Source of the DNA: Escherichia phage UPEC06
Sequence record: MW250786
Direction: 5' to 3' (one strand)
DNA length: 64,000 nt
In this document: one piece after another, positions 5,228 to 54,060 of the stretch
Numbering within the stretch: the first letter of the stretch is position 1
Layout: each line of letters opens with the position of its first letter
The notes under the pieces: generated by a model
What the model was told of the DNA's origin: nothing
The model's database searches: none
Seen by the model: only the letters and a program-made list of their open reading frames with translations
Made by a program: the position numbers and the translations under genes

Positions 5228-5236
5228 AATTTTTCC

Positions 5237-6370
5237 TTATTCAAGTCCAGTAAGGTCCAGTGGTACATAGGTTGTCTGGTCTGTTGTGTATCCAGGTAAT
5301 TTACCTGTAGAAGCGCCACCAGATCCATACAAAATTCCATCTTCTGCCAGAACGTAAGTGTTTGTATAATTACCTCTTTGAAATATTTGACCCCATAACG
5401 GACTTGCTGTAGTGGTTATTCTAGTAATACCGTAGTACGTCTGAGTTCCCAATCCCCAGCCTGTCCCCTCAGTCCTCCCCGTAATACCGATATTGTTATT
5501 TATTCTCCTCACAAGACCTTGGGCGAGAGGGTAAAACCCGTAAGCGGGTGAATAAACACTGCTTGTGACTACAGATATGTCAGTTACAGTTGCAACAGTA
5601 GATGCTGCACCTAATGACCCAGATGCGTTGCTACCTAAGCCAAGTATCAATTCATCCCTGTCTGTGCGTGAGCCTGAAATATACACGCACTCATATCCAG
5701 TCTTTAATGCAAGTGGTGCTGAGTTTATTGGGTTTGGTATTCTAACAAAAGAGGTCCTTTGGCCTGTCCCGTTGGAAGAAGAAAACTTAGAGTAAGCCCC
5801 GTTTCCACATCCGTATACATCACCCCCACTTATAATCCAGGTAGTAACTGAAGTATCCAATATTGCAACATCTTTAATACCCAACGAAGTATTGGGTGGT
5901 TCAACATAAGTTAAATTCGGGACTGAAGTATTGGAACCTAAGCCTAAATGGGGGCCTGATCCCGCAACTGCCAGAGTATTATCTGTATAAAGGAAAGCGA
6001 TCGCATTAGCACCCATTTCTATTTTTCTTATCGGCTTATTGATTGCCATTACCTTAGCCGTTACGTCAACGGGCGTATTCTCTACTCTAGGTACGAAGAA
6101 GTTATACCCTGTAATAAACCACGATCCCCCTTTTGTTTTGAACAAGAGCGAAGCTTGCCCAGCCCAGAAGTCATCTACACCAGATGAAACCAACGTCCAT
6201 TCTCTCGTAGTAGCACCTATGCCAGATAAGTTTGCATTTGTAGGTGATATCGAGTACAGATTCCCAGCTTCACTAAGCAAGTGAATACTTTCACTTGCTG
6301 TGATATCGAACTTTTTCAACTTAAATGGGACCTTACCTGCCGCGCCGGATAAATTTAACATCTCTAACAT
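5237..6370 (-). CDS. RCC1-like repeat (predicted beta-propeller) protein, paralog B
   Basis: Internal ATG at 6370 gives MLEMLNLSG; GGAGAA RBS; same repeat architecture as its neighbours. Confidence 0.65.
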   Translation of the reverse strand: MLEMLNLSGAAGKVPFKLKKFDITASESIHLLSEAGNLYSISPTNANLSGIGATTREWTLVSSGVDDFWAGQASLLFKTKGGSWFITGYNFFVPRVENTPVDVTAKVMAINKPIRKIEMGANAIAFLYTDNTLAVAGSGPHLGLGSNTSVPNLTYVEPPNTSLGIKDVAILDTSVTTWIISGGDVYGCGNGAYSKFSSSNGTGQRTSFVRIPNPINSAPLALKTGYECVYISGSRTDRDELILGLGSNASGSLGAASTVATVTDISVVTSSVYSPAYGFYPLAQGLVRRINNNIGITGRTEGTGWGLGTQTYYGITRITTTASPLWGQIFQRGNYTNTYVLAEDGILYGSGGASTGKLPGYTTDQTTYVPLDLTGLE

Positions 6371-6383
6371 TTTATTCTCCTTA

Positions 6384-7583
6384 TTAGTACCAAGGCATAC
6401 TAGCCATGAGGCGCATAGGTGTAACACTGGTCCCTCCATCAGGGAGTGTCCATCCACTTGCTGTTCTACCACCTGCGGCAAACAATTGATAATCTTCAGT
6501 TAAGATAAATGATCGTACATAATCTTTAGCCACCCCAATAACCTTTTTATCTCCGAAGGTTGCAGGTTTGTACATATCCACATAGTTATATACCGATGTA
6601 TAACTTACACCATCACCCACTTGACCTGATCCGTTTTCACCACCGTTTTTGATAGTGTTTCTCCCGAAACAAATGATCGGAGCACCCGTTGCATCACCTG
6701 TTTGGATACCTGATGGATATAATAAATCACCCTCCGGTAAGTTTCCACTCAAGGCATCGTTTTTTATAGGTCGCAGGACCGTTCCTGCGTTGTTAAATGA
6801 ACCCGTTCCCGCAGAACCTTGAGTATTCAAACCGCTCCAATACACGTCTCCATTTTGCATTATTCTCCAAGTACATACCGTAGCAACAATTATGTTTTTA
6901 ACACCCGAAGTAACCAATGTTGGAGTTTGTAAGTGACTGTTAAGAGCACCTAGACCACTTTCCCCGTAAGCATCGTACCCTGCAAAGAATTCCCTGCCAT
7001 CTTCAGTTAAGAAATGAGTACCGAAAGCCCTTGTAGCCAATTGAGATATAGGCCCCATACTGGTGATCTGGACAAAGTTTGCAATCATATTTCTTGTACC
7101 ATTCCCACACTCACCATTAGAGTTAAGACCACAGCAGAAAACACGACCATCTTTTGTCAGAAGCCTACAAGATCCGCTGCCGAGCGCCAGAGTTTTTATA
7201 TCATCAGGTGTCACACCAATATTGTTAAAATGTACTGTAACTTCAGTAAAGTAAGCAACGTTACCACCACCTGTCCCCAGTGGTGGAAATGCGTTCCTGA
7301 TCCCAGCATAATAGAATTTATCATCGTTTGTTGCAACAAGTGTACTAGCCTGACCTAACCAGAAATATTTACAGTTTGAATAGATAGGTTTAAAGCTCGG
7401 TACTTCTGTTGGAATACCGTCCCCGAATCGGTATACAGGTGCATTACCATACCCGTAAAGATTGCCAGTTGGCCTGTGAAGATACATAACCACAGATTGT
7501 TGCGCCTGAATAAATTCAGGTGAGATCTCACTATCAATTGGAGGCAAAGAGGCTACAGCTCCTAAGTTCAACATCTCTAACAT
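6384..7583 (-). CDS. RCC1-like repeat (predicted beta-propeller) protein, paralog C
   Basis: ATG at 7583 gives MLEMLNLGA; GGAGAA RBS; repeats such as GRVFCCGLNSNGECGNG. Confidence 0.65.
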   Translation of the reverse strand: MLEMLNLGAVASLPPIDSEISPEFIQAQQSVVMYLHRPTGNLYGYGNAPVYRFGDGIPTEVPSFKPIYSNCKYFWLGQASTLVATNDDKFYYAGIRNAFPPLGTGGGNVAYFTEVTVHFNNIGVTPDDIKTLALGSGSCRLLTKDGRVFCCGLNSNGECGNGTRNMIANFVQITSMGPISQLATRAFGTHFLTEDGREFFAGYDAYGESGLGALNSHLQTPTLVTSGVKNIIVATVCTWRIMQNGDVYWSGLNTQGSAGTGSFNNAGTVLRPIKNDALSGNLPEGDLLYPSGIQTGDATGAPIICFGRNTIKNGGENGSGQVGDGVSYTSVYNYVDMYKPATFGDKKVIGVAKDYVRSFILTEDYQLFAAGGRTASGWTLPDGGTSVTPMRLMASMPWY

Positions 7584-7660
7584 ACTTAATTCTCCTGTTG
7601 TTTTGGAATACCACAAAGAACCCCATAAAGAGGTTCCTTGATTTCATTATCTACTTTACT

Positions 7661-12705: not shown

Positions 12706-13253
12706 AATGGTATGTCCTCGTCAACAATAAATTTTATAGCATTCTTTACAGCAGCTTTGTTCAGATGTTGAACACGCTGGAAGAACATTGGGTTCAAGTC
12801 AAGAAGAATATCATCATCCCCATACAACGCCGTGAAAAGATCGAGTTCTTCATCTGTCGGGTGGGACGGGTTTTCAAACAAGTCCTCAAACACAACCTGG
12901 GCCTCATTTCTTTTAGCTAATGTGGTTGAGTCACGATAGATATTTAATACCGTGTACACATCATCTACGCTCAGGATTTTGACACATTCCAGTTCTCCTG
13001 TGTTTCCATCAAGATACAAAGTTATTGCAGGAGTTGACCAATTTGATTCAGATATCGCATAAACGTAGATGCTTTTGCGATTACCAACTGCAACAGACTC
13101 TTCAATTTTCTTTTCTGCTGCCTTAAAGAAAGGCTGGTGCTTGATCCAATGATCCCAACCAATCCAACGAGCACCTTTACCATACGCATTCAGTACATGA
13201 TTTTCAATGTTACGTTTACTCATTAAAACCCCCAAAAAAGAAAAGCCAGCCAC
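12702..13253 (-). CDS. hypothetical protein
   Basis: 183-aa ORF. Confidence 0.5.
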   Translation of the reverse strand: MAGFSFLGVLMSKRNIENHVLNAYGKGARWIGWDHWIKHQPFFKAAEKKIEESVAVGNRKSIYVYAISESNWSTPAITLYLDGNTGELECVKILSVDDVYTVLNIYRDSTTLAKRNEAQVVFEDLFENPSHPTDEELDLFTALYGDDDILLDLNPMFFQRVQHLNKAAVKNAIKFIVDEDIPF

Positions 13254-13275
13254 CTTTCGGTGACTGGCCTGAAGT
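13243..13275 (-). terminator. Putative intrinsic terminator
   Basis: Hairpin gccagccacc-tttc-ggtgactggc (one G-U pair) followed by a U-run on the minus transcript. Confidence 0.5.
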
Positions 13276-13742
13276 TAGCTATTAATCACCACGAATGCAG
13301 TAACTATAGCATACAGAAATCCAATTGCAACAAAAATTATCATAATGGGGTCAGAGGTTACTCGCTTAAGTTTTCCTACGAAAGTTGATCTGTATTTGTG
13401 TTCCTTCTCCATCTTGTTTATCAAAATGATGAAAGAGTTGACATGAATATCTTCAGCGTTCTCTGCAAAGGGTGTGTACTTGAACGTACCTTCTGTGTTT
13501 GCAATAAAGCTGCGATGATACTTTTTACCGTCATAACTTTCTATAAGAAGACCATCCTTTGTCACCCGATAACTGACTGAACGGAACTTGTCATAAAAAA
13601 CGTATGCCCTGAATCCATCCTGATCGGGAACAGCCCTTCTGACGTAACCGTCAAAAAACTCCAATCTCTTTCCAGAATTCAGTTCCAAATTGTCAGCTAA
13701 CATAGGGAGTTGACTTACATATGTAAAGTACATAATGATCAC
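13275..13742 (-). CDS. hypothetical protein with a C-terminal TM segment
   Basis: 155-aa ORF; C-terminal IMIIFVAIGFLYAIVTAFVVI. Confidence 0.5.
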   Translation of the reverse strand: MIIMYFTYVSQLPMLADNLELNSGKRLEFFDGYVRRAVPDQDGFRAYVFYDKFRSVSYRVTKDGLLIESYDGKKYHRSFIANTEGTFKYTPFAENAEDIHVNSFIILINKMEKEHKYRSTFVGKLKRVTSDPIMIIFVAIGFLYAIVTAFVVINS

Positions 13743-13934
13743 CCTTCCACTAAGCTGAAATCATTTTATCATATTATGAAAAAATACAACAGCGAAGATC
13801 GGTCATGAACACTATGTTGTTAATTTTTACAACAAGACTTCAAAAAAGTATTTAAATCACTTAAATCGATTTTAATACATAGAAAATACCTATGGACCAG
13901 ATCTGACCCATAGGCTGTACCTTAATGTGAAATT

Positions 13935-14513
13935 TTATTCATTTCCCCGATATTTTTGAATCGCGATCGAAGTCCTTGGTTCAGCCAGGCCAGTTCCGTA
14001 TGCATACCATTTACCAGTGAGTGTTTTTCGAGCACCGTAGGACCCAATCTCCATATCGTCACAATAAACATCGTAACCGATCGGAGTCTTAACTAAAAAG
14101 AGTACGTCACGAGGAATCCCTAAGAGGGTAAACATCGATATGGCATCTTTTGCGATCTCGTGAGAAATCTTCTCTGCATTCTTTTTACTACTGGCACTTC
14201 TAAACAGTTCCATCTTTAAGAAGATATTGAAATGAATATCATCAAGAACCATCTCATCACGAAAGCATGGAGTCACAGCCATCCAACTGCCATCTTCCAA
14301 CTTCCCCTCTTTGTCGAGTTGAAGGAATGATTGCTCTGCGGAAGCCACTGCATATTTCCCGTTCTGGACAATGCGAAGATCAGTAACATCTTCAGGGCAT
14401 GTATGATCCATAGCATCATCATCCACATAGCTTGGGACAACCTTATCATTGAAACCTTTACATTTCCACCAACTATGGGCATCAATAAACAATGTGAAGT
14501 CAATGTTTGACAT
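13935..14513 (-). CDS. hypothetical protein with class II aaRS-like motifs (tentative)
   Basis: FRDE (motif-2-like) and GTGLAEPR (motif-3-like) about 100 aa apart; ATG at 14513. Confidence 0.45.
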   Translation of the reverse strand: MSNIDFTLFIDAHSWWKCKGFNDKVVPSYVDDDAMDHTCPEDVTDLRIVQNGKYAVASAEQSFLQLDKEGKLEDGSWMAVTPCFRDEMVLDDIHFNIFLKMELFRSASSKKNAEKISHEIAKDAISMFTLLGIPRDVLFLVKTPIGYDVYCDDMEIGSYGARKTLTGKWYAYGTGLAEPRTSIAIQKYRGNE

Positions 14514-14514
14514 T

Positions 14515-15018
14515 TTAGCCTCGCTTACCATTCTGGAATGCACGTTTAGTGATTTTTGACATAACCATCAGGTCTTCCAGTGAAGTGCTCGGATGATGCT
14601 TATTCAGGTAGGCTTCCATAGCACCGACCAGATCAGAAAGCTCTACCAACTCCATGATCTTGCATTTTTGTTTGGCTGCATCCTTAAGTTCATCAAGTTC
14701 TTCTTGAATCTTAGTGATCTCTCCAAGTTCTCCACGAGGGAAAGTATCCAGATGATAGCCAGGTTTTTGTTCTTCGATCTCTTCATGTCCGACAACACGA
14801 AATTTTCCAGCAGCTAAACGCCAAACACCTTCGAAATACACAATGTATTCTAAAGACTCCACAATAAAGATGGTATCGAAATTTTTAAATTTAAAAAATC
14901 CTTCGACAAGATTGTCCTCTGTACTGAAACTTCCGAAGAAGTTGAGTTCTTGCTCCGTATGAAATTCGATAACCTTATTTTCGTTATGGAGTTTCGTCAG
15001 TAATTTTAAAATTTTCAT
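14515..15018 (-). CDS. protein with a C-terminal MazG-like NTP pyrophosphohydrolase domain (tentative)
   Basis: EITKIQEELDELKDAAK...ELVELSDLVGAMEAYL pattern typical of all-alpha MazG/HisE; ATG at 15018 with an AGGAGAGGA RBS. Confidence 0.4.
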   Translation of the reverse strand: MKILKLLTKLHNENKVIEFHTEQELNFFGSFSTEDNLVEGFFKFKNFDTIFIVESLEYIVYFEGVWRLAAGKFRVVGHEEIEEQKPGYHLDTFPRGELGEITKIQEELDELKDAAKQKCKIMELVELSDLVGAMEAYLNKHHPSTSLEDLMVMSKITKRAFQNGKRG

Positions 15019-15031
15019 TTTTCCTCTCCTC

Positions 15032-15520
15032 TTATGGGCAACACCGTGGAGATCTCCCACAAAAGAATTGCCAATTGGTTTCTGAATCTTTGTAATTTAC
15101 AAATCCTATCCTTCCGCACCCTTGTCCACTACAAACAGCCTCACGAGGATGATAGTCTATGCTACAAGAGTGTGGATGGTCAAATGCTTCTCGTATTTCA
15201 ACACACAATCGGCTTAACCAATCGAACATTTTTGGCATAGAAGCCTCAAGAAGTTTAAGTTCATCGATCGTAGGTTTATCTTTCTCAAGGAAGAAGTCGT
15301 CTATCTCCGAAAACAAAATAACGTTTTGAACTATCCCGTCAGTTACCTTGTAAGAGAACTCATCAGTAAGTCTCACAGTAACTTCCTCTATCAGTTCTTT
15401 TTCATTATCCTGGTCTTTTGCCAACCTTTCTTCAATCCACCGGATAACGAAGAATCTTTCTCGCTGAACATCCATGTTCAGAGTATTAATTATTTTTTCA
15501 TAGATTAGGTTTCCTTCCAT
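15032..15520 (-). CDS. hypothetical protein (Cys-rich C-terminus)
   Basis: 162-aa ORF. Confidence 0.45.
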   Translation of the reverse strand: MEGNLIYEKIINTLNMDVQRERFFVIRWIEERLAKDQDNEKELIEEVTVRLTDEFSYKVTDGIVQNVILFSEIDDFFLEKDKPTIDELKLLEASMPKMFDWLSRLCVEIREAFDHPHSCSIDYHPREAVCSGQGCGRIGFVNYKDSETNWQFFCGRSPRCCP

Positions 15521-16632
15521 ACCTTGTCTTGTGCCTCCAGAATAAGTTTTTCAACAATCTTCAGGTCTGTCTTCTTAGGTAAGCCCGATTGCTTATAAAG
15601 AACACTTGTAATCATTTTATCCTTTTCTTCAGCCCATTCAACAATTTCTTCATAACGGTATTCACCATTTCGGATCGCAAGAAGTTCTTCAGCGTCTGGT
15701 CGATTCACTAAAACTTTACCTTCCATAAGGATTTCTTCACCCATGCGGAGAAGTCGAACCAAGTGCATAGCATGTTTAGTGTCGTATCCGAACTTCTCTT
15801 CCAGTTCATGACGCTTCTCGTTACGATTCTTAACCCACTCCCAATAATTGTGGTGGCGTTCCTTTGCCCATCTATGATCGTCAGCACAATACTTAACAAT
15901 CATCAGGGTCTTGCCCCTTTTAACTTCCTCGGGGATTTCTTCGTAATCTAACTTACGGATGGAACCATCTTTGTTAAACATAGGTTGAACATTTTCACTA
16001 CGATCCTCTACAACGCCGTAAATGTTACCACCATAAGGAACCAAAGTACAGAAGCCTTCCATGTTTTTAAGCTTACGAACAAAGTCCTCATACTTCAACT
16101 CACCTTCTCCGAGATAGCTCTGCACCAGACGGAAATAGTCAAATTGAGTTGGTGGCTCTTTTGGTTGCGGATTATTAATGTGTTTGTTGTGACCCTTGAT
16201 CCGCTTTAACTGAGACATTGCATAACCACTGAAGCGAAATGCAACTTCACGAGACAGTAAGGAGTAGAAATGTTCTTTCATCTCTTTCCAAGCTTCGTAC
16301 TCGTACAATGTGGCTTTCGGATCAGTAAAACCCAGTTCAATGATATTTGGGTTCATCTTCGAAAACAGTTGAAGGAAAGTTCCCAATTCGTAGATCTTGG
16401 CATCCTCTTCACCAGGGATGTTTAATTCAGTAACCTCTTTGAATGGGGTACGAACCACATTTGGGGTTGCAACAAAAACCCCACGGATATCAATATCACT
16501 ACCTTCGTTATTCGTACCATACGCATGAGATCCTGCCAGACTCAACATCAGTACCTTCGCTACGTCTGGATGCTTTTCCATCTTCTCTACGATACTTTTT
16601 ACCTTTCCAGCACTCACAACTGAATTTTCCAT
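15505..16632 (-). CDS. Pol-beta superfamily nucleotidyltransferase, substrate unknown
   Basis: N-terminal GSHAYGTNNEGSDIDIRGVF matches the GS-x(9-13)-DxD NTase signature. Confidence 0.6.
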   Translation of the reverse strand: MENSVVSAGKVKSIVEKMEKHPDVAKVLMLSLAGSHAYGTNNEGSDIDIRGVFVATPNVVRTPFKEVTELNIPGEEDAKIYELGTFLQLFSKMNPNIIELGFTDPKATLYEYEAWKEMKEHFYSLLSREVAFRFSGYAMSQLKRIKGHNKHINNPQPKEPPTQFDYFRLVQSYLGEGELKYEDFVRKLKNMEGFCTLVPYGGNIYGVVEDRSENVQPMFNKDGSIRKLDYEEIPEEVKRGKTLMIVKYCADDHRWAKERHHNYWEWVKNRNEKRHELEEKFGYDTKHAMHLVRLLRMGEEILMEGKVLVNRPDAEELLAIRNGEYRYEEIVEWAEEKDKMITSVLYKQSGLPKKTDLKIVEKLILEAQDKVWKET

Positions 16633-16722
16633 TTATCCTCCAATCATGTAAGTCACACAAGCCAACCCAGTTGGCCTGTTTAATCTTTATAAAGTTTACG
16701 CAGCTTGTGCAATCTTTTTTAT

Positions 16723-17118
16723 TTATAGGCATTTCACACCATAAATGATCATCAACACAACAAGTGTCAACGTATAAAAGAAGCTCCCGTAAAGTCCATA
16801 ACTGGTAATTTTAAGTTTTTTCTTAAAGCACATCATTGTACTATAAATTACACCAGTCCAGTGAATCACTAAAATCGCGGTGGCAATATCTGAAACATTA
16901 CCCGCCCAAAGCATCAGAGAGTATGAGAGGTACATTGCAAAACCTGATAGCAAGAATGTAAACAAATAACCAATTACACTTTTCTTTTTCTGATCTACGA
17001 TTTTATTTTTCATGGTATCGATGTTCAGATTGTAATAGGCAACTGCCACTATCTGGATAATCAGCCCCAAGATAAAGAAAGAGATCAGTGTAACGTATTC
17101 AAAAATTGGTGCAGTCAT
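16723..17118 (-). CDS. multi-pass membrane protein
   Basis: 131 aa with about 4 hydrophobic helices. Confidence 0.5.
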   Translation of the reverse strand: MTAPIFEYVTLISFFILGLIIQIVAVAYYNLNIDTMKNKIVDQKKKSVIGYLFTFLLSGFAMYLSYSLMLWAGNVSDIATAILVIHWTGVIYSTMMCFKKKLKITSYGLYGSFFYTLTLVVLMIIYGVKCL

Positions 17119-17516
17119 TATAATTTCTCCTCAATAATTTCAGAAATGAGATTCGAGATCTCGAAAGTTTCTAACTCTTCGACGTGTGACAAGCGCTGGA
17201 GGCGCTCGATAACAAAGTCTTTCTTCACAAACATATCCGACAGATGCTCAATGTCCTGCTTACCACGCATTCCGCTAACCAACTGCTTGTATCGGATGAG
17301 TTCAATATACTCTTCTTTGGGCATTACTGTCAAGCGTTCATCTGCACAAATATGCAAAAATACTTGCTTGCTGTCCCAGTCGAACCCATTGTGCACTGCT
17401 TCTACTTCACGGTGAGGTGTCCCGCCAATTGTTACATGACCAACCTCAACAGGGATAGATACCTGATCATCAGGTCGGCACTGCTGCAACTCCTCAATCA
17501 ATTCAGATACTTTCAT
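17118..17516 (-). CDS. hypothetical protein
   Basis: 132-aa ORF. Confidence 0.5.
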   Translation of the reverse strand: MKVSELIEELQQCRPDDQVSIPVEVGHVTIGGTPHREVEAVHNGFDWDSKQVFLHICADERLTVMPKEEYIELIRYKQLVSGMRGKQDIEHLSDMFVKKDFVIERLQRLSHVEELETFEISNLISEIIEEKL

Positions 17517-17518
17517 AG

Positions 17519-17974
17519 TTACCCCTGTTTAAGCTTAAAAGATTTAAAGGCTTCGATAAAGTCCATTTCTTTTTGCGTGTATTTGTGGTCAATTGTATCA
17601 GCGAAAAGAGGGCAACGACCATCAACCAACTTCACATCCCACAGATGTTGAGGGAGAATAAATGCAATGGCTGTAAGTGCACCATTCAAAGAATCATTCT
17701 CCTCGCAGAAAAATGCGTAAGGAATCTTCTCTATGTTTGGAGCTAAAAATCCTTCTGCAAAATTAAGCATCTTAGATTGATAGCCTCCGTTCAACAAGAT
17801 CATTGTTTGGTCTTTGCTTTGCCACTGATCTACAAGGTTGTATCTGTCATCATATCGATCGGCATAGGCAAAGCCATAATGACCTACAAGGTTTGCTGCT
17901 GCATGTGCTGCTTGGATACCTGCTTGGATTCCCATCATGTAGCTGTTTACCAATACGTACATCCGAGTTTTCAA
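17519..17974 (-). CDS. PTH2-like peptidyl-tRNA hydrolase fold protein (tentative)
   Basis: MGIQAGIQAAHAA resembles the PTH2 GK.AAQ..HA motif; NGALTAIAF resembles the second conserved segment. Confidence 0.4.
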   Translation of the reverse strand: MKTRMYVLVNSYMMGIQAGIQAAHAAANLVGHYGFAYADRYDDRYNLVDQWQSKDQTMILLNGGYQSKMLNFAEGFLAPNIEKIPYAFFCEENDSLNGALTAIAFILPQHLWDVKLVDGRCPLFADTIDHKYTQKEMDFIEAFKSFKLKQG

Positions 17975-18291
17975 TTCTTACCTCCGAAAATTCTTTTTGC
18001 AAATTTTTCATTACCTAACGTCATGTTGTAGAAAACTATAATTGAATAGACAATCCACGCAAGGACATAAAATAAAATCAAGAAAGGCCATCCCACAAAC
18101 CAAAACACTGTCATTATTAACCAGCCCGTCATAAGGAGTTTATAATTAACATTCCCGTGATTTAAAGGGTCAAGTAAGTTACTGTTCTCTGGCAGGGTGA
18201 TACGAAACCCACCTTGACGAAGCTTGATCAAAAAGAACCAAGCAGCAGAACTTATAATGCAACATAAAATATATATCAGTAATCCTGTCAT
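17971..18291 (-). CDS. membrane protein (tandem paralog 1; LIKLRQGGF motif)
   Basis: 106 aa, 3 hydrophobic helices; homologous to the adjacent gene. Confidence 0.55.
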   Translation of the reverse strand: MTGLLIYILCCIISSAAWFFLIKLRQGGFRITLPENSNLLDPLNHGNVNYKLLMTGWLIMTVFWFVGWPFLILFYVLAWIVYSIIVFYNMTLGNEKFAKRIFGGKN

Positions 18292-18617
18292 TTTTTAACT
18301 CCGAAGATCTTAGATAGTAATTTATCATTCCCGATAGTTACACCACAAAAACTTTTTACTCCGTATACTAGATACGACCCGATTGTAACACAGATAATGA
18401 TCGGATAAACAAGATACCAAAAGAATGTTGCAAGTATCCACCCTGCCATCACCATACGTAAATTTACATTTTCGTTATTCAGTGGTTCCAGGATATAAAT
18501 ATCCTCACAATCTTTTGGGAAGGGGATATTGAACCCCTTCTGCCGTAATTTAATCAATAAGAACCAAAGTGGACAACTGATCAAACAACCTATTAAATAA
18601 CCTTCAACCATTTTCAC
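18288..18617 (-). CDS. membrane protein (tandem paralog 2; LIKLRQKGF motif)
   Basis: 109 aa; homologous to the adjacent gene. Confidence 0.55.
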   Translation of the reverse strand: MKMVEGYLIGCLISCPLWFLLIKLRQKGFNIPFPKDCEDIYILEPLNNENVNLRMVMAGWILATFFWYLVYPIIICVTIGSYLVYGVKSFCGVTIGNDKLLSKIFGVKK

Positions 18618-19945
18618 TCTCCTTCAACTTGTCAAGGTATTGTGTAACGTATCTTACTTTTACATTTCTGATTCTGCTCTTGATCTCATCTGGACGTCCC
18701 GCAAATTTTTCAGAAATCTCTTTACTTTCTTTTGAGATTGCAACACTGTTCTGAATAATACCCGCCAGTGCTGAGAATAATACCAGTGGTTGACTGTAGT
18801 TGTCAAACATTTTTTCAGGTCCACGCCCACGAGCATCACAGATGCAAGCGTCCCGCCAGTGCTGAGAATAATACCAGTGGTTGACTGTAGTTGTCAAACA
18901 TTTTTTCAGGTCCACGCCCACGAGCATCACAGATGCAAGCGTCAATAAATTCAGAAAGGAATGCTTGGTCCTTTTCACCACGTAAGGCTACCAACAAGTC
19001 ATAAACTTTCTTCGGCTTCATCTCTTTAATACGGTGAAGTCGTGTATGGTGCTCGGTCACAGCTAAAGCTAACTTCTTCCAACTGTTGGGAACACCAAAC
19101 CGATCGCAAACTTGCTCAGTCAACTTGATACCATGTTCTTCATGCCCGTGTAACTTACCTGTAACCCAATAAATGCATTTCCCTAAGTCGTGACACAATA
19201 CTGCCCACTTTACAGCCTCACTTGCACGAATGGCTTGAGCATAATCCATACAAAGTAAAGTATGAACAAATGCGTCACCTTCTGGATGGTGTTCTTTAGG
19301 TTGAACAACATCATGCAAGTCAACAAGCTCAGGGAATTCACCAAGTTGAGTCAACATACGGATCATTACCGAAGGTTTATTCATCTCCGACTGATCACTG
19401 AAGCATTTCTTAATCTCTGCAAATTTACGCTCTTTTGGAAGTGCACTTAAATCTGCATTTTGGCACATTAACCAAGTTATAGAGTCAATTATAAACTCTC
19501 CACCATATCTGGCGTAAAGTCTTGCTAGTCGGTATACACGTAAGGGGTCTTCGATAAATGCCTTAATAGATACACAACGTAACCGACGATTTTCAATATC
19601 AAGTGCACCACCGCAAGGGTCAATAATTTCACCCGTAGAAAGATCCTTAGCAATAGCATTAATGGTCAAATCTCTTCGCATCAGATCTTGCTCGATTGTA
19701 ACGTCTGGAGAGAACACAACCTCAAAGTCGTGATAACCAGGTCCTGTTGACCTTTCTGTCCTAGCAAGAGCATACTCTTCCTTTGTCTCGGGGTGAAGGT
19801 ATACAGGAAAAGCTGCACCAACTTGAGTGAATCCCTTTTCAATCATTTCTTCATGGGTCGCCCCAACTACAACGTAGTCACGATCCTTGCTTTCAACACC
19901 CATTAGTTCATCCCTCACTTGCCCACCAACAGCATATATTTTCAT
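18604..19945 (-). pseudogene. cca: tRNA nucleotidyltransferase (CCA-adding enzyme, class II, HD domain), reading frame broken by the 91-bp duplication
   Basis: N-terminal GGQVRDELMG..DRD motif; the two ORF-track ORFs (18836-19975 and 18604-18981) share the peptide ACICDARGRGPEKMFDNYSQPLVLFSALAG; removing one repeat copy restores one ~426-aa ORF. Confidence 0.6.
18761..18942. repeat. Exact tandem direct duplication of a 91-bp unit (18761-18851 and 18852-18942) inside the CCA-adding enzyme gene
   Basis: Read directly: identical 91-nt strings back to back; 91 is not a multiple of 3. Confidence 0.9.
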
Positions 19946-20280
19946 ACTCTTTCCCCTCTTAAGTTTAAAGACCAATCTTTTATTTCTTCTTTCCAGTTTG
20001 TATTTCTCTTAATGTCTTGCTTTTGACCACGAAGATAGTTGATGATTTCAAGCGGGTCTTGCTTAACAAAAGAAATATTATCGATCGGACACTCAACTAA
20101 CTTAAGCATCCTTTCAAAACGATTATACTCATCTTCTGACTTCGGTGCAACAGGAATAATATCATAATCTTCAAGATTGTCGAGAGTTTCAAGAGTTTCA
20201 AGAGTAACCTTCATCTCATAGCCTTCTAATCTCTTTGTCTTGATACCAAACACTCTTCGAAAGTAAATGTAATATTTCAT
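19942..20280 (-). CDS. hypothetical protein
   Basis: ATG at 20280 with an AGGAGAA RBS; ATGA overlap with the cca start. Confidence 0.5.
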   Translation of the reverse strand: MKYYIYFRRVFGIKTKRLEGYEMKVTLETLETLDNLEDYDIIPVAPKSEDEYNRFERMLKLVECPIDNISFVKQDPLEIINYLRGQKQDIKRNTNWKEEIKDWSLNLRGERV

Positions 20281-20332
20281 TATGTTCTCCTAGTTGATGA
20301 CTATCATTATACACATCCCCATATCCAAGTCA

Positions 20333-20362
20333 ACAAAAAAGGCCACCCGAAGGTGACCTTTA
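20333..20362 (-). terminator. Intrinsic terminator (aggtcacc-ttcg-ggtggcct plus U-run); same sequence as the plus-strand terminator at 61192-61221 in reverse orientation
   Basis: Hairpin plus A-run on the plus strand; reverse complement of 61193-61221. Confidence 0.65.
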
Positions 20363-20365
20363 AAT

Positions 20366-20875
20366 TTAAGGGTGAATCCAGTAAAAAGGTTTTGTTAAAC
20401 CAAGCTTACCTTTTTTATCCCAAATAAAATAACCGTATGCTGCACCATCTGTTTTACCATCGTCAGTAAAAGAGGGTCGCTTAGATAAAGTAACCAAGTG
20501 ATCAACAGGATATTCCTTCCAGAACTCAACACGTTTGGTACTCTCAAGGAAACCTAAACGAAGAAGCATGATCACCACATCAGCGTCCTTGTGGGCCTTC
20601 TCCACAAACTCTTGAGCTAAATTGTAAGGTGGATTAGTTAACACACAATCTACCTTGTTGTATTCAGTCGCAAGATAATCAACACCTGCTTGAATCTCAG
20701 CCCAAGCTGAACCAATCGGCATTTCATTATAAAAACGCCCAGAGGCTCTGCAAGGTTCCAGATAAGTCCAATCCTGACGGATCGGAACTAAATTCAAGAA
20801 AGCATCCACTGCCCACTTCGGAGTTTCATAACGATCATTTTCACGGCGTTCTGCTTTAGGTTTCAGTGCAGCCAC
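20366..20875 (-). CDS. DNA N6-adenine methyltransferase (small phage Dam-like)
   Basis: YETPKWAV and TNPPY motifs; 169 aa. Confidence 0.65.
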   Translation of the reverse strand: MAALKPKAERRENDRYETPKWAVDAFLNLVPIRQDWTYLEPCRASGRFYNEMPIGSAWAEIQAGVDYLATEYNKVDCVLTNPPYNLAQEFVEKAHKDADVVIMLLRLGFLESTKRVEFWKEYPVDHLVTLSKRPSFTDDGKTDGAAYGYFIWDKKGKLGLTKPFYWIHP

Positions 20876-20877
20876 TA

Positions 20878-21723
20878 TTATTTTCCCCCTTCTTTCGCCG
20901 CAGTGATGATCTGTTCAATCAACTCGTCGCGATAATAAACGTACTGTTCAACACCAAAACATTCCGCAATCTCGTCTAGTTCGTCGAGGTTGTACTCGTC
21001 AAAGTCTCGTGGGTTAAGAGTAAAGATGTTGAATTTTTTGGCGTAGCCTTCGTCGAGGACGATTTCAAACTCTCCTTCTCCGATTTCTTTCGCATCATCA
21101 ACATCACCCGATTCGATTGCCCCTTCAACCTTAATCCCCCCTGTATTTTGTTGATCGGCTTCCATTTGCTTTTTAATTGCTTCATCTTCAGCGGTCAGAC
21201 GGGCTTGCATCTGAGAGGAAGTAAAGTAAATTTCGCCAGCACGATCAAACAGTTCAACGAGTTCATCTTCTGTCATAACACCCTTGTACAGATCGTAGTA
21301 TTTCTCTTTGAACAGGTCTTTGTAGAAATCGCTACGTTTAAATACCAGTGCCGAGTCACCGCCCATACTCATCTGAACGTTGTGGAACATGTAATGAGAA
21401 CCTGGACGACAAATTCGAACATGACCGGATAAGAAGATCATTGTTGCAGCACTTGCCACTTCACCAATACCGTGTGTTACAACAGTCGCCTTTGTTTCAG
21501 AGATCGCTGTCATGTACATATCGGCGATATCACAATAACCACCACAAGAAGTAATGTACAGATTTACAATATCACCTTCAGGTGCTGAACGAATCAGGTC
21601 AACAGCCTCGATATGTGCTTCAGGTGAATTGTGCAGATCCGTAACATAAATACGCCAATCGTTAGAAGTTACTGGAGACACCCAAATGTTTTTTGCCGGA
21701 CCATTCATTACGATTTCTTCCAT
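20878..21723 (-). CDS. ClpP-like serine protease (S14 fold) with an acidic C-terminal extension
   Basis: Colinear with ClpP: TSCGG (cf. NSPGG), GEVASAATMIFLSG (cf. GQAASMGAFLL), MFHNV (cf. MIHQP). Confidence 0.6.
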   Translation of the reverse strand: MEEIVMNGPAKNIWVSPVTSNDWRIYVTDLHNSPEAHIEAVDLIRSAPEGDIVNLYITSCGGYCDIADMYMTAISETKATVVTHGIGEVASAATMIFLSGHVRICRPGSHYMFHNVQMSMGGDSALVFKRSDFYKDLFKEKYYDLYKGVMTEDELVELFDRAGEIYFTSSQMQARLTAEDEAIKKQMEADQQNTGGIKVEGAIESGDVDDAKEIGEGEFEIVLDEGYAKKFNIFTLNPRDFDEYNLDELDEIAECFGVEQYVYYRDELIEQIITAAKEGGK

Positions 21724-22214: not shown

Positions 22215-22532
22215 TTAAATTCCGATTAAATATTTAAACTTCCCGTCGTTCTCTGCGATCTTGTGGATTACATAGAACCAATTTTCAATTCCATCTTCAT
22301 CTTCCTCTTTCACACGATCACCAGTTTTCAACTCAACCTCGGAAACGTACTCCTTACTTTCAAGAAAATACTTCCACTGAACCATGTCTTTAAAATTACA
22401 GATTAGTTTATTTTTGCCATCTGTCGTCCAAAGGTCCTGATTGACCCACATACCAACAACGAAATTCTTTTCTTTTTTAGGACGACCAAGTGCATAAGTG
22501 TTGTTTAACATCTTTGCTTTATCTAAGACCAC
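22215..22532 (-). CDS. hypothetical protein
   Basis: 105-aa ORF. Confidence 0.5.
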   Translation of the reverse strand: MVLDKAKMLNNTYALGRPKKEKNFVVGMWVNQDLWTTDGKNKLICNFKDMVQWKYFLESKEYVSEVELKTGDRVKEEDEDGIENWFYVIHKIAENDGKFKYLIGI

Positions 22533-23250
22533 GTTTTGACTCCAAGTTAACTAAGAAATTCTCAAGCACTGTGATGTTGTCTTCTTTCCAAAGATTAAGT
22601 GTTCTTACTCCACTCTTCTTTGCAAGATTGACTGCTGTAGCAGTGCCACCCTTGGGATTGCCCGTTCTTGTTTCCTTTGCGTAGTATATCACAAATTTAC
22701 TTTGCATCAAGTATGCATTTGAAAGATTTTTACCAAAAATCTGGTGTACGTTTCTTTCGTGCAACTTCCTTGCTCCCTGACTCAACTTATCCCAACCACC
22801 ATGAACTTCTTTCACCCAATCCCAACGCATCTCTTTATGCTGTGGGAAATCTTTGTCGATTTCATTCAGAGAGATATTATACAGGTCCTTAAGTCCCTGT
22901 CCACCTTTAAAGTTATTCCAAGGAACATATATCTCTGCAAGTCTACTCGGTGATTGGGTCATATTACAATCTTCATGAAACCTCTGCATACCCCTTTGGA
23001 ATGCTGCATCTGCGCCACCTGCACCACCAGATCGTAATGTGTACCCAACTCTTGCTAATCTCCAACCTGCATCTTCCATAATTTTTAATATTTCTTCAGG
23101 AGTCTCCCTTGAACCTATTCCTGTATAAGCTGGCACTTTAACCTCCTTCATCTTCAGTTGACCAGTACCCATTAACTTTTTTCCAAAGTCTTTGGTTATC
23201 TGATCCCCTGAATCTTTTAGTTGTAGGTTTGTTTTCATCATACTTGCCAT
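22519..23250 (-). CDS. DprA/Smf-like (SLOG-type Rossmann) domain protein; start uncertain
   Basis: GIGSRETP...LRSGGAGGADAAFQRG matches the DprA GSR...SGxAxGxDxxAxxG pattern. Confidence 0.4.
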   Translation of the reverse strand: MASMMKTNLQLKDSGDQITKDFGKKLMGTGQLKMKEVKVPAYTGIGSRETPEEILKIMEDAGWRLARVGYTLRSGGAGGADAAFQRGMQRFHEDCNMTQSPSRLAEIYVPWNNFKGGQGLKDLYNISLNEIDKDFPQHKEMRWDWVKEVHGGWDKLSQGARKLHERNVHQIFGKNLSNAYLMQSKFVIYYAKETRTGNPKGGTATAVNLAKKSGVRTLNLWKEDNITVLENFLVNLESKRGLR

Positions 23251-52219: not shown

Positions 52220-52300
52220 GCGGGTGTATCTCAACGGTCTTCTAAACCGTCGTTAATCGAGTAATTGGAGTATGAAGGTTCGAGTCCTTCCTCCCGCGCT
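52220..52300 (+). tRNA. tRNA-like element: acceptor stem and T-arm present, core non-canonical, anticodon unresolved
   Basis: T-arm gaagg-ttcgagt-ccttc; 9-bp terminal inverted repeat tagcgcggg/cccgcgcta; internal hairpin acggt-cttctaa-accgt. Confidence 0.3.
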
Positions 52301-52317
52301 AAGTTCTTTTGAATATA

Positions 52318-52392
52318 GGCCCTGTAGCTGGACGGTTCAAGCAAGCGACTCATAATCGCCAGACGGTGGTTCGATTCCACCCAGGGCCACCA
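52318..52392 (+). tRNA. tRNA-Met (anticodon CAT; could be initiator, elongator or Ile-lysidine type)
   Basis: Acceptor ggccctg/cagggcc, anticodon loop ctCATaa, T-arm ggtgg-ttcgatt-ccacc, discriminator A, encoded CCA. Confidence 0.7.
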
Positions 52393-52525
52393 TATGAAGT
52401 CGGGTCGCTCCCGATAAGTCGTCGGACTGATGTTCCCTGACTACGAGTTCCCTCAACGATAACGACGTAGATCACAGCAGAAACGGCGCACCCTATTTCA
52501 TTTCTTAATACATTTCAATAAGTTC

Positions 52526-52554
52526 TTGACATAATCCTATTATACTGCTAATAT
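52526..52554 (+). promoter_or_regulatory. Sigma70-type promoter: -35 TTGACA, 17-bp spacer, -10 TAATAT
   Basis: TTGACA at 52526-52531 and TAATAT at 52549-52554. Confidence 0.6.
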
Positions 52555-52581
52555 AGTTATATCTACTGAATTGAGGTGTTT

Positions 52582-52956
52582 ATGGCTAAAGCTGAAATCG
52601 TTACTCGAAAACGCGGTCGGCCTACTACAGAGGAAAGCATTGCAATCAATACTGAGAGAGCAATTCTTCATGCTCGTTCCGAGTTTGCAAGACTTACTCC
52701 TCAAGCAATTAAAACTCTGGAAGGTCTACTGACTTCCGGTACAGAGAAAGTTAAAGAAACTACTGCGAAGTATATTCTTGAGCAAGCTGAAAAGGCAAAC
52801 AATCTGTACACGATGGAAGATAATGAAGAGGATCTGGCAGGAGGAACTACTTCTGCAAATTCAGAAACTCATCAAGGCCCTTCTGACGCATTTAAGGATG
52901 CTATTCCATTAACTACTCAGATTCGTGAGTATAAAATGGCAGAAGGTGAAGATTAA
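52582..52956 (+). CDS. small basic-N-terminus, acidic-C-terminus protein; possible DNA-binding protein or terminase small subunit
   Basis: ATG at 52582 with a GAGG RBS; KRGRPT motif; function not established. Confidence 0.5.
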   Translation: MAKAEIVTRKRGRPTTEESIAINTERAILHARSEFARLTPQAIKTLEGLLTSGTEKVKETTAKYILEQAEKANNLYTMEDNEEDLAGGTTSANSETHQGPSDAFKDAIPLTTQIREYKMAEGED

Positions 52957-52976
52957 GGCTCGCAAGGGCCTTTATT
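52955..52976 (+). terminator. Possible terminator hairpin (GCAA tetraloop) after the 52582-52956 gene
   Basis: Stem aaggctc/gggcctt with gcaa loop followed by tttatt. Confidence 0.35.
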
Positions 52977-53210
52977 AAGAAGTTTTCTTTAAGGTAGTTC
53001 TTACTTTAGCAGAGTAAATCTTCGGCAAGTGGCGGTAACCACTTTACCGATACCTCATAGTTAGTGTTGCGAACACTGGCTACCTTAAAGAGAATTTAAC
53101 TCGTCGAATAAGGAAGATGCTGATCTCAAAGTGAGGTTACTTACCGCAAGGGGTGTGCATAGACTCCCGCTTCCGAATAGACTATGTGGCGAGATGTATT
53201 TGGGGACGTA

Positions 53211-53561
53211 ATGAATAATAAAGACCAAGGTAATGCAGGAGAGGCGTTTGCCATCTATCATTACACCTCATCAGGCCACAAGGTGTCAAAGCCGTTGTTT
53301 GAAAACTGCCCATACGACCTTATCGTTGATAAAGACGGTTGTTTGTTAAGGGTACAAGTTAAAACATCGCGTGTCAAAGCGCCAAGTGGAAGGTATGAGG
53401 TTTCTTTGAGGACCAACGGTGGTAACCGAAGTGGTATAGGAAAGAGCAAAAATATCTCAAGCTCGGAAGTAGACCTACTTTTCGTTCTTATTGAAGACGG
53501 GAGGTATTTTGAAATCCCTTGCTCAGAGGTAGATGGTCAGACTTGCGTGACCGTAGGATAA
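53211..53561 (+). CDS. restriction-endonuclease-like (PD-(D/E)XK-type) nuclease, possible homing endonuclease inside the tRNA island
   Basis: GEAF..YDLIVDKDG..RVQVKTS resembles E...PD...(E/Q)VK; ATG at 53211 with a GGGGA RBS. Confidence 0.35.
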   Translation: MNNKDQGNAGEAFAIYHYTSSGHKVSKPLFENCPYDLIVDKDGCLLRVQVKTSRVKAPSGRYEVSLRTNGGNRSGIGKSKNISSSEVDLLFVLIEDGRYFEIPCSEVDGQTCVTVG

Positions 53562-53562
53562 G

Positions 53563-53649
53563 GCATTGTTAGACCGTAGGGGTAGCGGGGCAGACTGTAA
53601 ATCTGCTGTTCATAGAACTCGGGTGGTTCGACTCCATCACAATGCACCA
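53563..53649 (+). tRNA. tRNA-Tyr (anticodon GTA), type II with a long variable arm
   Basis: Acceptor gcattgt/acaatgc, anticodon arm gcaga-ctGTAaa-tctgc, 15-nt variable arm, T-arm ggtgg-ttcgact-ccatc, discriminator A, CCA. Confidence 0.65.
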
Positions 53650-53652
53650 AAT

Positions 53653-53727
53653 TTTCCGTTAGGCTTATAGGATAAGATTCCCGCAACGTCTCGTTGTGAT
53701 ACTGGTTCGAATCCAGTACGGAAACCA
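53653..53727 (+). tRNA. tRNA-like element: perfect acceptor stem and T-arm, no canonical anticodon arm
   Basis: tttccgt/acggaaa acceptor and actgg-ttcgaat-ccagt T-arm; the middle does not fold into a standard D/anticodon arm by eye. Confidence 0.3.
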
Positions 53728-53733
53728 AATTAA

Positions 53734-53815
53734 TGTGCGGGTAACATAATTGTCACGGTGGCAAGCTGGCCTCCAAAACCAGTCGTAAGGAGTTCGACTC
53801 TTCACCTTCACGCCA
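53734..53815 (+). tRNA. tRNA-like element, possibly tRNA-Trp (CCA anticodon loop ctCCAaa) with an over-long D region
   Basis: Acceptor gtgcggg/ccttcac (1 mismatch), anticodon-like loop ctccaaa, T-loop ttcgact, discriminator G, CCA; 82 nt. Confidence 0.35.
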
Positions 53816-53819
53816 AATA

Positions 53820-53896
53820 CGGTGTATAGCGCAACTTGGTAGCGCGAATGCTTTGGGAGCATTAGGTTCGAGGTTCAAATCCTCGTACACCGACCA
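53820..53896 (+). tRNA. tRNA-Pro (anticodon TGG)
   Basis: Cloverleaf folded by eye: C1-G72, D-arm gcgc/gcgc, anticodon arm aatgc-ttTGGga-gcatt, T-arm cgagg-ttcaaat-cctcg, discriminator A, CCA. Confidence 0.75.
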
Positions 53897-53901
53897 AATA
53901 T

Positions 53902-53977
53902 GCGGGTATAGCTCAGTTGGTAGAGCTTCTGATTTCCAATCAGAATGTCACGAGTTCGAGTCTCGTTATCCGCTCCA
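53902..53977 (+). tRNA. tRNA-Gly (anticodon TCC)
   Basis: gcgggta acceptor, D-arm gctc-agttggta-gagc, anticodon arm tctga-ttTCCaa-tcaga, T-arm acgag-ttcgagt-ctcgt, discriminator U, CCA. Confidence 0.8.
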
Positions 53978-53985
53978 AACAAAAA

Positions 53986-54060
53986 TGGGGATTAGCCAAG
54001 CGGTAAGGCATTGGATTTTGATTCCAACATTCACTGGTTCGAGTCCAGTATCCCCAGCCA
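53986..54060 (+). tRNA. tRNA-Gln (anticodon TTG)
   Basis: U1-A72 acceptor tggggat/atcccca, anticodon arm ttgga-ttTTGat-tccaa, T-arm actgg-ttcgagt-ccagt, discriminator G, CCA. Confidence 0.75.

Follow-up and report, generated by a model that had tools for sequence, protein, structure and literature searches.

A minimal seryl-tRNA-synthetase-like core and a MazG-like protein form a near-obligate gene pair within a coliphage enzyme cluster with a candidate role at tRNA 3' ends

We analysed a 64,000-nucleotide stretch of Escherichia phage UPEC06 (record MW250786; hereafter the window), focusing on a group of five enzyme genes between positions 13935 and 19975. A preliminary description of this DNA had recognized the group as a five-enzyme cluster of about 6 kb on one strand, with possible functions in tRNA repair or counter-defence, and all of the genes concerned do lie at 13935-19975 on the minus strand. 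Two of them, encoding a catalytic core derived from seryl-tRNA synthetase (SerRS) and a protein with a MazG/HisE-like domain, form a near-obligate two-gene module that exists in both gene orders and as natural fusions, and it is this pair, not the five-gene cluster, that constitutes the truly conserved unit. The cluster as a whole can be read as an early transcription unit of enzymes for RNA and tRNA 3' ends that would keep the tRNA pool usable in infection, a reading to which we give about even weight; within it, a role in tRNA 3'-end maintenance or in counter-defence is a plausible candidate. RlaP nucleotidyltransferases, CCA-adding enzymes and PTH2 are already known as phage RNA-repair genes (PMC7824862). 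New are the identification of the synthetase-like gene as a minimal SerRS core, the lock between this core and a MazG/HisE-like partner across a large and diverse family, including fusions, and the disruption of cca in this isolate. The enzymes of the cluster, together with the parts of the disrupted gene, are:

13935..14513, minus strand: minimal seryl-tRNA-synthetase-like class II catalytic core, 192 aa (profile, hhalign and structure model)
14515..15018, minus strand: 167-aa protein with a C-terminal MazG/HisE-like all-alpha nucleoside triphosphate (NTP) pyrophosphohydrolase domain at 14521-14760 (phrog_6408, E 2.3e-36)
15505..16632, minus strand: RlaP-family Pol-beta nucleotidyltransferase, 375 aa (PF10127; phrog_388, E 3.7e-78)
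17519..17974, minus strand: Pth2-fold hydrolase-like protein of 151 aa whose active-site region is divergent (phrog_3668; fold)
18604..18760, minus strand: out-of-frame 3' remainder of cca, inside the open reading frame 18604-18981 (phrog_2244 positions 320-389)
18761..18943, no strand assigned: perfect 91-bp tandem duplication in cca (Tandem Repeats Finder: 2.0 copies, 100% identical)
18836..19975, minus strand: 5' part of cca, class II CCA-adding enzyme (head and HD domains), probable start ATG at 19945, truncated by a frameshift

Window proteins were scored against the curated cut-offs of Pfam and against PHROGs, and 47 window open reading frames (ORFs) were scanned with profile libraries. 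The class II aminoacyl-tRNA synthetase (aaRS)-like motifs claimed in the preliminary description are present, as TPCFRDE and YGTGLAEPR within ORF 13935-14543. The only Pfam match of this protein is to PF00152 (tRNA-synt_2), at 12.9 bits against a cut-off of 25 (E 0.059), which places it below every aaRS cut-off. The same description had graded its aaRS, MazG and PTH2 calls as weak, rightly so, as all three proteins fall below Pfam cut-offs; PHROGs profiles match all three strongly. Because single-sequence phmmer searches of the aaRS-like, PTH2-like and RlaP proteins against the PDB yielded nothing useful, profiles and structure models were needed. Neither the aaRS-like nor the PTH2-like ORF belongs to an unrelated family, and both are what they had been guessed to be at the level of fold or superfamily.

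The aaRS-like protein has 776 homologues in a large protein collection. In a representative library of 1.84 billion proteins its family comprises 1,206 clusters (50% identity, E <= 1e-30), nearly all with members of 175-205 aa, and is well separated from true SerRS. Across 30 diverse homologues, P26 of motif 1, TPCxR..E of motif 2 (R84/E86) and GTGxAxPR of motif 3 (R179) are invariant, while FxKxE and ExGSxGxR are also common to these members. In the PDB, the family profile picks out the catalytic domains of SerRS (best E 1.3e-6), and hhalign pairs the family with E. coli SerRS at 95% probability (E 3.3e-8) over SerRS residues 185-409; in this alignment TPCFR is identical and SAE/TAE, FLKxE/FDKVE, EIGS/EISS and GTGLAEPR/GSGLAVGR are paired. 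The AlphaFold2 (AF2) models of this protein and of the Pth2-like protein are very confident, the antiparallel beta-sheet catalytic fold of class II aaRS is present, and the closest fold is that of SerRS. The N-terminal coiled-coil arm with which SerRS binds the long variable arm of tRNA-Ser is absent, the alignment running only from residue ~185 onward, and the motif-2 loop and other loops are shortened relative to SerRS. We conclude that the protein is a minimal catalytic core derived from SerRS. Its likely substrate is serine or a small amino acid resembling it, since the core retains, at the aligned S/T-A-E, E and T positions, the residues that we take from SerRS structures to be those holding the seryl moiety.

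In GenBank, such cores are labelled seryl- or histidyl-tRNA synthetase, or hypothetical, and the named matches looked like phage contigs. An analogy to HisZ/HisE, prompted by the PHROGs label histidyl-tRNA synthetase, was considered and rejected, because the core resembles SerRS and has retained the catalytic arginines. A bona fide SerRS has about 430 aa including the arm, whereas the core has 175-205 aa, lacks the arm and is consistently partnered with a MazG-like protein. The core can also be compared with truncated aaRS paralogues with non-canonical acceptors, namely the amino acid:carrier-protein ligase Bll0957 (3mey), EpmA/GenX (3a5y), HisZ and AsnA; however, it is nearer to bacterial-type SerRS than to these four in both sequence and structure, is much shorter than any of them, and, unlike them, has an NTP pyrophosphohydrolase as partner, with no carrier-protein or elongation factor P (EF-P)-like partner. 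GluQRS is another truncated aaRS paralogue with a non-canonical acceptor.

The partner gene starts at the ATG at 15018, as judged from its start codon and ribosome-binding site, which gives a product of 167 aa. The earlier claim of a MazG-like NTP pyrophosphohydrolase holds for the identity of the domain and not for the extent of the protein, only the C-terminal ~80 of the 167 aa being widely conserved (phrog_6408). The window protein matches PRA-PH with E 0.031 and scores 15.1-15.7 bits against a Pfam cut-off of 21.3 (PF01503 or PF03819), and PRA-PH is matched by 30 of 37 homologues (best E 1.5e-5). Residues E23, E24, E27, E43 and D46, which make up the EExxE...ExxD metal-binding motifs, are invariant in 37 diverse homologues, and the top PDB matches of the profile, MazG-like SSO3215 and HisE, align at these acidic motifs with E-values of 0.1-0.5. 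The same motifs characterize MazG/HisE (PRA-PH) enzymes in general, including small phage MazG-like proteins, but the paired protein represents a distinct subfamily with its own invariant GYH motif and C-terminal F..G.R motif, and it is coupled or fused to the SerRS core. The phage has, in addition, a second, longer and more conventional MazG-like pyrophosphohydrolase (44418-45194, minus strand; phrog_671, E 4.6e-20). Because a separate generic MazG-like gene is thus available, the paired protein is probably specialised.

The coupling of the two genes is apparent both in the window and across diverse phages. In the window, the ATG of the SerRS core lies 1 nt after the stop codon of the MazG-like gene, and its GAGG Shine-Dalgarno sequence lies inside that gene. 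To assess the pairing more broadly, 80 IMG/VR loci were retrieved via the aaRS-like family and searched with hidden Markov models built in this analysis. In 85 of 87 loci a MazG-like domain shares the strand of the SerRS core (upstream of it in 63, downstream in 22), and in 75 loci the two lie within 400 nt of each other. The reciprocal search, which set out from the MazG-like domain and used a tight MazG-like alignment, recovered the SerRS core at 37 of 40 loci; of the other three, two are partial matches and one is a match near a contig end. One fusion of the two proteins occurs among the loci and at least seven occur among the 150 best representatives, six of the seven in the order core-MazG and one in the order MazG-core. 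No third gene proved comparably conserved near the pair in an all-against-all clustering of nearby ORFs, and the next-largest cluster is apparently an opposite-strand ORF overlapping the MazG-like gene. It is the co-occurrence in both directions of search, the fusions and the 1-nt gene junction that together make the pair a near-obligate module.

This module is found in Vequintavirinae, Stephanstirmvirinae, T4-like Acinetobacter phages, jumbo Caulobacter and Brevundimonas phages and Microcystis phages, as well as on contigs of 250-580 kb. Full-text literature searches found no paper analysing the pair, and it was not found in the catalogue text of PMC7824862; one genome paper does list a SerRS, g121, in the vicinity of the MazG genes g118/g119, but does not remark on it.

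Among the remaining enzymes, the Pol-beta nucleotidyltransferase was correctly recognized in the preliminary description: RlaP (PF10127)/NTP_transf_2 matches with E 1.5e-18 (67.8 bits against a cut-off of 23), and the hG[GS]...DxD motif reads AGSHAYGTNNEGSDIDIRG. RlaP enzymes add one or two nucleoside monophosphates (NMPs) to RNA 3'-OH ends and prefer damaged RNAs (2025 preprint, PMC12776372), and RlaP restores the aminoacylation of repaired tRNA (PMC12776372). The RNA-ligase association from which the name RlaP originates is absent here, as the scan of 47 window ORFs revealed no RNA-ligase domain.

The window phage is a Septuagintavirus-like coliphage, with 93-95% nucleotide identity to Escherichia phages A7_1, A73, W70, LTH01 and A5-4, all of them Vequintavirinae (the genus Septuagintavirus is given in the source name of an A5-4 protein). 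Comparison with these relatives is informative for cca. The class II CCA-adding enzyme is upheld as a domain assignment, with PolyA_pol (E 3.6e-19) and HD (E 1.4e-8) both above Pfam cut-offs, but the gene is not intact. Its 5' part matches phrog_2244 with E 1.4e-128 over profile positions 2-349 of 392, and the translation contains GGQVRD, RRDLTINA and EDPLR; the E. coli-type class II CCA-adding enzyme has the same PolyA_pol head and HD domain and the same GGxVRD, RRD and EDxxR motifs. In contrast to that enzyme, the window Cca retains its head and HD domains but is cut off after about 370 aa, whereas the version of the relatives is intact at about 430 aa. Relative to A7_1 and LTH01, both of which have the intact gene, the duplication amounts to a 91-nt insertion into an otherwise collinear gene. 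The 100% identity of the two copies implies that the duplication either arose very recently or is an artefact of assembly.

The PTH2-like peptidyl-tRNA hydrolase candidate was borne out in its fold and not in its active site, as the conserved Pth2 lysines are absent. Pfam PTH2 (PF01981) matches the window protein with E 0.011 (16.4 bits against a cut-off of 23); it has 43 homologues, and 10 of 28 give sub-threshold PTH2 matches (best E 0.0012). Its AF2 model has a predicted local distance difference test (pLDDT) score of 91.3, and the top 11 Foldseek matches in the PDB are all Pth2, with target-normalised TM-scores of 0.65-0.75. The family profile found no match among PDB sequences. An hhalign comparison of the family with five solved Pth2 sequences gave a weak alignment (21% probability, E 0.001) that pairs GIQAAHA with the AAQVAHA of Pth2 and sets the invariant Q21 and H24 opposite an invariant Q and H. 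From strand register only, the invariant E91 probably replaces the Pth2 Asp (the D of DAGxT). In the Pth2 of S. solfataricus, K18 and D86 are catalytic. The models thus assign the protein a Pth2 fold, while peptidyl-tRNA hydrolase activity is uncertain.

Sequence features at the borders of the cluster suggest that the genes from 20333 to 13888 form one early transcription unit, which we propose because a conserved promoter-like site and terminator-like hairpins bracket them, and we hypothesise that they are co-transcribed. This bracket agrees closely with the coordinates originally given for the cluster. Both promoter hexamers are invariant in A7_1 and LTH01, and the intergenic regions at the two unit borders are conserved in these phages, with 97% and 91% column identity. 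In the order of transcription, a 112-aa ORF comes first and cca second; two small membrane proteins that are paralogues of each other, the PTH2-like ORF, an ORF of 132 aa and a membrane protein of 131 aa follow, and the series ends with the nucleotidyltransferase, the 162-aa ORF, whose tail is Cys-rich, and then the MazG-like and aaRS-like ORFs. An Rfam scan of 13000-21000 found no known RNA family. In addition to the enzymes listed above, the features of the proposed unit and its borders are:

20338..20361, minus strand: terminator-like hairpin closing the upstream unit (10-bp stem, then a T run; sequence kept in A7_1 and LTH01)
20306..20333, minus strand: sigma-70-like promoter at the proposed unit start (TTGACT-16-TATAAT, 11/12 consensus matches)
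19942..20280, minus strand: 112-aa ORF, first of the unit (sub-threshold Pfam match; conserved in 9 syntenic loci)
18288..18617, minus strand: small membrane protein, 109 aa (family matches in loci, no Pfam match; paralogue of the gene at 17971..18291)
17971..18291, minus strand: small membrane protein, 106 aa (paralogue of the gene at 18288..18617)
17118..17516, minus strand: 132-aa ORF (phrog_12566)
16723..17118, minus strand: membrane protein, 131 aa (phrog_12739)
15032..15520, minus strand: 162-aa ORF with a Cys-rich C-terminal tail, ...CSGQGC...CGRSPRCCP (phrog_12113)
13888..13915, minus strand: terminator-like hairpin at the proposed unit end (12-bp stem, T run, directly 3' of the SerRS-core stop codon)

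The CGRSPRCCP tail of the 162-aa ORF is also fused to the C-terminus of some SerRS-core homologues (P0068 and P0073). Tails of other CxxC types are found on further homologues of the core, a hint that a zinc-ribbon accessory recurs in the family.

The tRNA island that the preliminary description attributed to this phage is real, with ARAGORN calls for Met, Tyr, Pro, Gly and Gln tRNAs at 52318-54060 and one further tRNA called by Rfam:

52220..54060, plus strand: phage tRNA island (five ARAGORN tRNAs and one Rfam tRNA)

All five tRNAs called by ARAGORN have an encoded CCA end, so that the phage Cca would serve repair and not maturation. The additional tRNA, at 52220-52298 on the plus strand, is called by Rfam only (35.8 bits against a gathering score of 29). 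Between tRNA-Tyr and tRNA-Pro lies a tRNA-like element (53653-53726, plus strand) that is called by neither ARAGORN nor Rfam; it has a 7-bp acceptor stem, a T-arm with GGUUCGAAUCC and a 3' ACCA, while its 'anticodon' arm consists of a 7-bp stem and a 3-nt loop, and its folding z-score is -2.9. Two protein ORFs are also located inside the island, at 53184-53561 (plus strand, phrog_5018) and 52576-52956 (plus strand, phrog_3330). In other phages, tRNA genes occur within 10 kb of the pair in 27 of 81 loci, and 237 of these 241 tRNAs are on the same strand. Among the tRNAs that ARAGORN calls near the pair are some with a CUA anticodon (amber suppressor, 'Pyl') on IMG/VR huge-phage contigs (L040, L041, L053 and L072).

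How these activities could act together can be outlined as follows. Cca, with its HD phosphohydrolase domain, would rebuild CCA ends (its gene being frameshifted in this isolate), RlaP would add one or two NMPs at damaged RNA 3'-OH ends, and the Pth2-fold protein, despite its divergent active site, would probably be an esterase acting at the aminoacyl- or peptidyl-A76 bond, or mimicking such action. The SerRS core would most likely form the adenylate of serine, or else of a small amino acid like it, because class II motifs 1-3 and the serine- and ATP-binding residues of SerRS are kept. The amino acid would then be passed to a non-canonical acceptor, as expected from the missing tRNA-binding arm and the short motif-2 loop; this could be a nucleotide, some other small acceptor, or a tRNA 3' end used whatever the identity of the tRNA, and our expectation is split roughly evenly between a tRNA end and a nucleotide or small molecule. 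The MazG-like partner may form a complex with the translationally coupled SerRS core and would split an NTP or a related pyrophosphate linkage. Overall, the unit would keep the tRNA pool usable during infection when host stress or defence activities damage the acceptor ends of tRNAs. Candidate antagonists at the acceptor end include MenT/AbiEii nucleotidyltransferases, toxSAS/CapRel pyrophosphokinases, GNAT toxins that acetylate aminoacyl-tRNA, and acceptor-stem tRNases. A more far-reaching proposal, which we put forward only tentatively, is that the pair is a widespread, obligate two-component enzyme of new chemistry, at times fused into a single protein, in which a synthetase of ~180 aa makes seryl-adenylate and, with the pyrophosphohydrolase, modifies a non-canonical acceptor (tRNA 3' ends of any identity, a blocked or pyrophosphorylated A76, or a nucleotide), thereby protecting or restoring the tRNA pool against acceptor-end toxins.

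A theme of tRNA maintenance is reasonable because RlaP, CCA-adding enzymes and PTH2 belong to known phage RNA-repair repertoires and RlaP restores tRNA aminoacylation. The repertoire described by Iyer et al. 2021 (PMC7824862) includes RlaP, a CCA-adding enzyme, Thg1 and PTH2. The window resembles it in having RlaP, a CCA-adding enzyme and a Pth2-fold protein together with the phage's own tRNAs, and the proposed role is the same, that is, to restore damaged RNA and tRNA ends in host-virus conflict. Here, however, no RNA ligase, kinase/phosphatase or Thg1 was found, the Pth2 catalytic region is divergent, cca is disrupted, and the SerRS-core/MazG-like pair is added. With the Pnkp-Rnl1 repair by which phage T4 counters the PrrC anticodon nuclease, the proposed unit would share the principle of a phage answer to tRNA damage, and T4 also has an RlaP, NrdC.11 (PMC12776372). 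Unlike in T4, healing and sealing enzymes were not found here, and the predicted activities address 3' acceptor ends rather than cleaved anticodon loops. Because no RNA ligase or polynucleotide kinase was found, either in the 47 window ORFs scanned or by phmmer with three seed proteins in the complete A7_1 genome, we do not read the cluster as a T4-type repair system for anticodon-nuclease damage.

A number of observations weigh against a joint function of the cluster at tRNA ends. Within the window, cca is frameshifted by the 91-bp duplication, so that its last ~50 residues are out of frame. In the Pth2-like family the GKGK lysines, invariant in five solved Pth2 structures, are not conserved, the equivalent positions being occupied by G/I/Q/H/A. 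The promoter and terminators are consensus matches whose total in the region does not exceed that in shuffled sequence, and unrelated membrane proteins and unassigned ORFs are interspersed among the enzymes. No tRNA-Ser is encoded in the window or in the complete A7_1 genome, which has five tRNAs. Neither RNA ligase nor polynucleotide kinase turned up among the 47 window ORFs in profile scans, which detected just an ATP-dependent DNA ligase. More generally, the pair is not attracted to tRNA genes, as the spacing between them is no closer than random in a within-locus permutation, and given this random spacing we do not claim a linkage of the pair to tRNA arrays. The full arrangement (ClpP-like, Dam, cca, Pth2-like, RlaP, 162-aa ORF, MazG-like and SerRS core) is confined to about a dozen syntenic loci of the Vequintavirinae type. 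Elsewhere, the pair is flanked by a helicase gene and ribonucleotide-reductase genes in Phapecoctavirus and lies in the hyperplastic nrdC region of Acinetobacter phage Berthold, with nrdC.11 (RlaP) 5 kb away, and genes of nucleotide metabolism adjoin it as often as RNA genes do. Since the full cluster is limited to one lineage and the pair occurs in other contexts elsewhere, the co-location may reflect genome architecture and not function.

Genes for RNA ends do recur near the pair in phages that lack this synteny. RlaP is found there in six loci (L006, L032, L033, L040, L041 and L062) and, as nrdC.11, in Acinetobacter phage Berthold, a Pth2-like protein 1.5-2.4 kb upstream of the pair in the L043/L054 group, and a CCA-adding enzyme in L061 and L064. 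Thg1 is near the pair in L006, L067 and L074, and PNKP-like proteins are near it in several other loci. The distant locus L006 has an RNA ligase (Rnl), PNKP, Thg1 and RlaP all close to the pair. With the L006 proteins as seeds, phmmer searches at single-sequence sensitivity did not find Rnl, PNKP or Thg1 in the complete A7_1 genome or in the window. We consider the recurrence of genes for RNA ends near the pair suggestive only.

An alternative is that there is no functional module at all, and that the cluster is instead a hyperplastic early block of independent accessory genes in which the pair serves nucleotide or small-molecule metabolism and not tRNA. In such a scheme, for example, the pyrophosphohydrolase could make an NMP for the ligase to aminoacylate, or Ap4N-type dinucleotides could be made or turned over. 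SerRS is a known synthesiser of diadenosine tetraphosphate (Ap4A), and there is a precedent, in the MazZ-PurZ pathway, for a MazG-like enzyme that feeds one ligating an amino acid. This alternative is consistent with the missing SerRS arm and short motif-2 loop, with the lack of attraction to tRNA genes, with the confinement of the full cluster to one lineage, and with the genes that adjoin the pair in several phages, which encode helicase, ribonucleotide reductase, ThyX and nucleoside deoxyribosyltransferase; in the window, the nrdD activase and nrdD genes are about 3 kb from the pair and NrdAB about 13 kb. It accounts less well for the recurrence of RlaP, Thg1, PNKP, CCA-adding enzyme and Pth2-like genes near the pair in unrelated phages, for the retention of the serine-pocket and ATP-binding residues of SerRS, for the recurrent Cys-rich, zinc-ribbon-like tails on the SerRS-core family, which can be read as possible nucleic-acid-binding modules, and for the separate generic MazG-like gene that the phage already has. 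We regard this alternative as possible but doubtful.

Two further explanations fit the data poorly. That the core is a genuine small seryl-tRNA synthetase boosting phage translation, with the other genes as ordinary translation helpers, would agree with the annotation of seryl- or histidyl-tRNA synthetases in many GenBank phage records, with the intact motifs 1-3 and with SerRS as the closest fold. The entire N-terminal region is absent, however, including the tRNA-binding arm, so that the protein begins at the equivalent of SerRS residue ~185, and deletion of this arm from SerRS abolishes the specific charging of tRNA-Ser while sparing adenylate formation. The score of the protein below every Pfam aaRS cut-off, the clear separation of its family from true SerRS, the obligate MazG-like partner, which has no role in canonical aminoacylation, and the lack of an encoded tRNA-Ser in the window and A7_1 all point the same way, and we judge this explanation improbable. 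The broken cca, the missing lysines of the Pth2-like protein and the sub-threshold Pfam scores of three of the five window proteins could also indicate that the cluster is decaying cargo, with the weakly matching genes being inactive, degenerate remnants. Both families nevertheless keep many residues invariant in divergent homologues that number from hundreds to thousands, the AF2 models have very high confidence, and cca is intact in the relatives. The perfect identity of the duplicated copies in the window marks the duplication as recent or artefactual. Decay of the whole cluster therefore appears very improbable.

If the unit is functional in tRNA 3'-end maintenance, it would represent an investment by the phage in the tRNA acceptor end, comprising the rebuilding of CCA, the addition of 3' nucleotides, and the formation and hydrolysis of ester bonds. 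Such a focus would differ from the anticodon-loop repair of T4 and would point to host attack on the acceptor end as the selective pressure. Independently of this, the SerRS core ranks among the smallest class II synthetase cores in nature and is of interest for the evolution and engineering of aaRS. About 1,200 diverged clusters of this core exist, in phages of Enterobacteria, Acinetobacter, Caulobacter, Brevundimonas and Microcystis as well as in huge phages, and the seryl- and histidyl-tRNA synthetase labels that its members bear in GenBank were given without evidence. The obligate coupling of the core to a pyrophosphohydrolase raises a well-defined biochemical question, and two small proteins are enough to address it.

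The surrounding 60 kb encode NrdD, PhoH, NrdAB, ThyX, a 5'-nucleotidase, a deoxynucleoside monophosphate kinase, exonucleases, endonuclease VII, a NADAR-domain protein and a DNA ligase. Just upstream of the proposed unit are a ClpP-like protease homologue (20878-21723, minus strand; Pfam E 6.4e-8) and a DprA-like protein (22519-23250, minus strand; phrog_768). The gene for the NADAR-domain protein (40443-41087, minus strand; Pfam E 5.9e-37) directly adjoins an HNH endonuclease gene (39939-40442, minus strand; phrog_5200), and its A7_1 counterpart, a COG3236 gene beside a homing endonuclease, is annotated with 81 aa only. NADAR proteins are candidate reversers of ADP-ribosylation. Finally, three consecutive ORFs of 380-414 aa with RCC1-like repeats occupy 4085-7616 on the minus strand.

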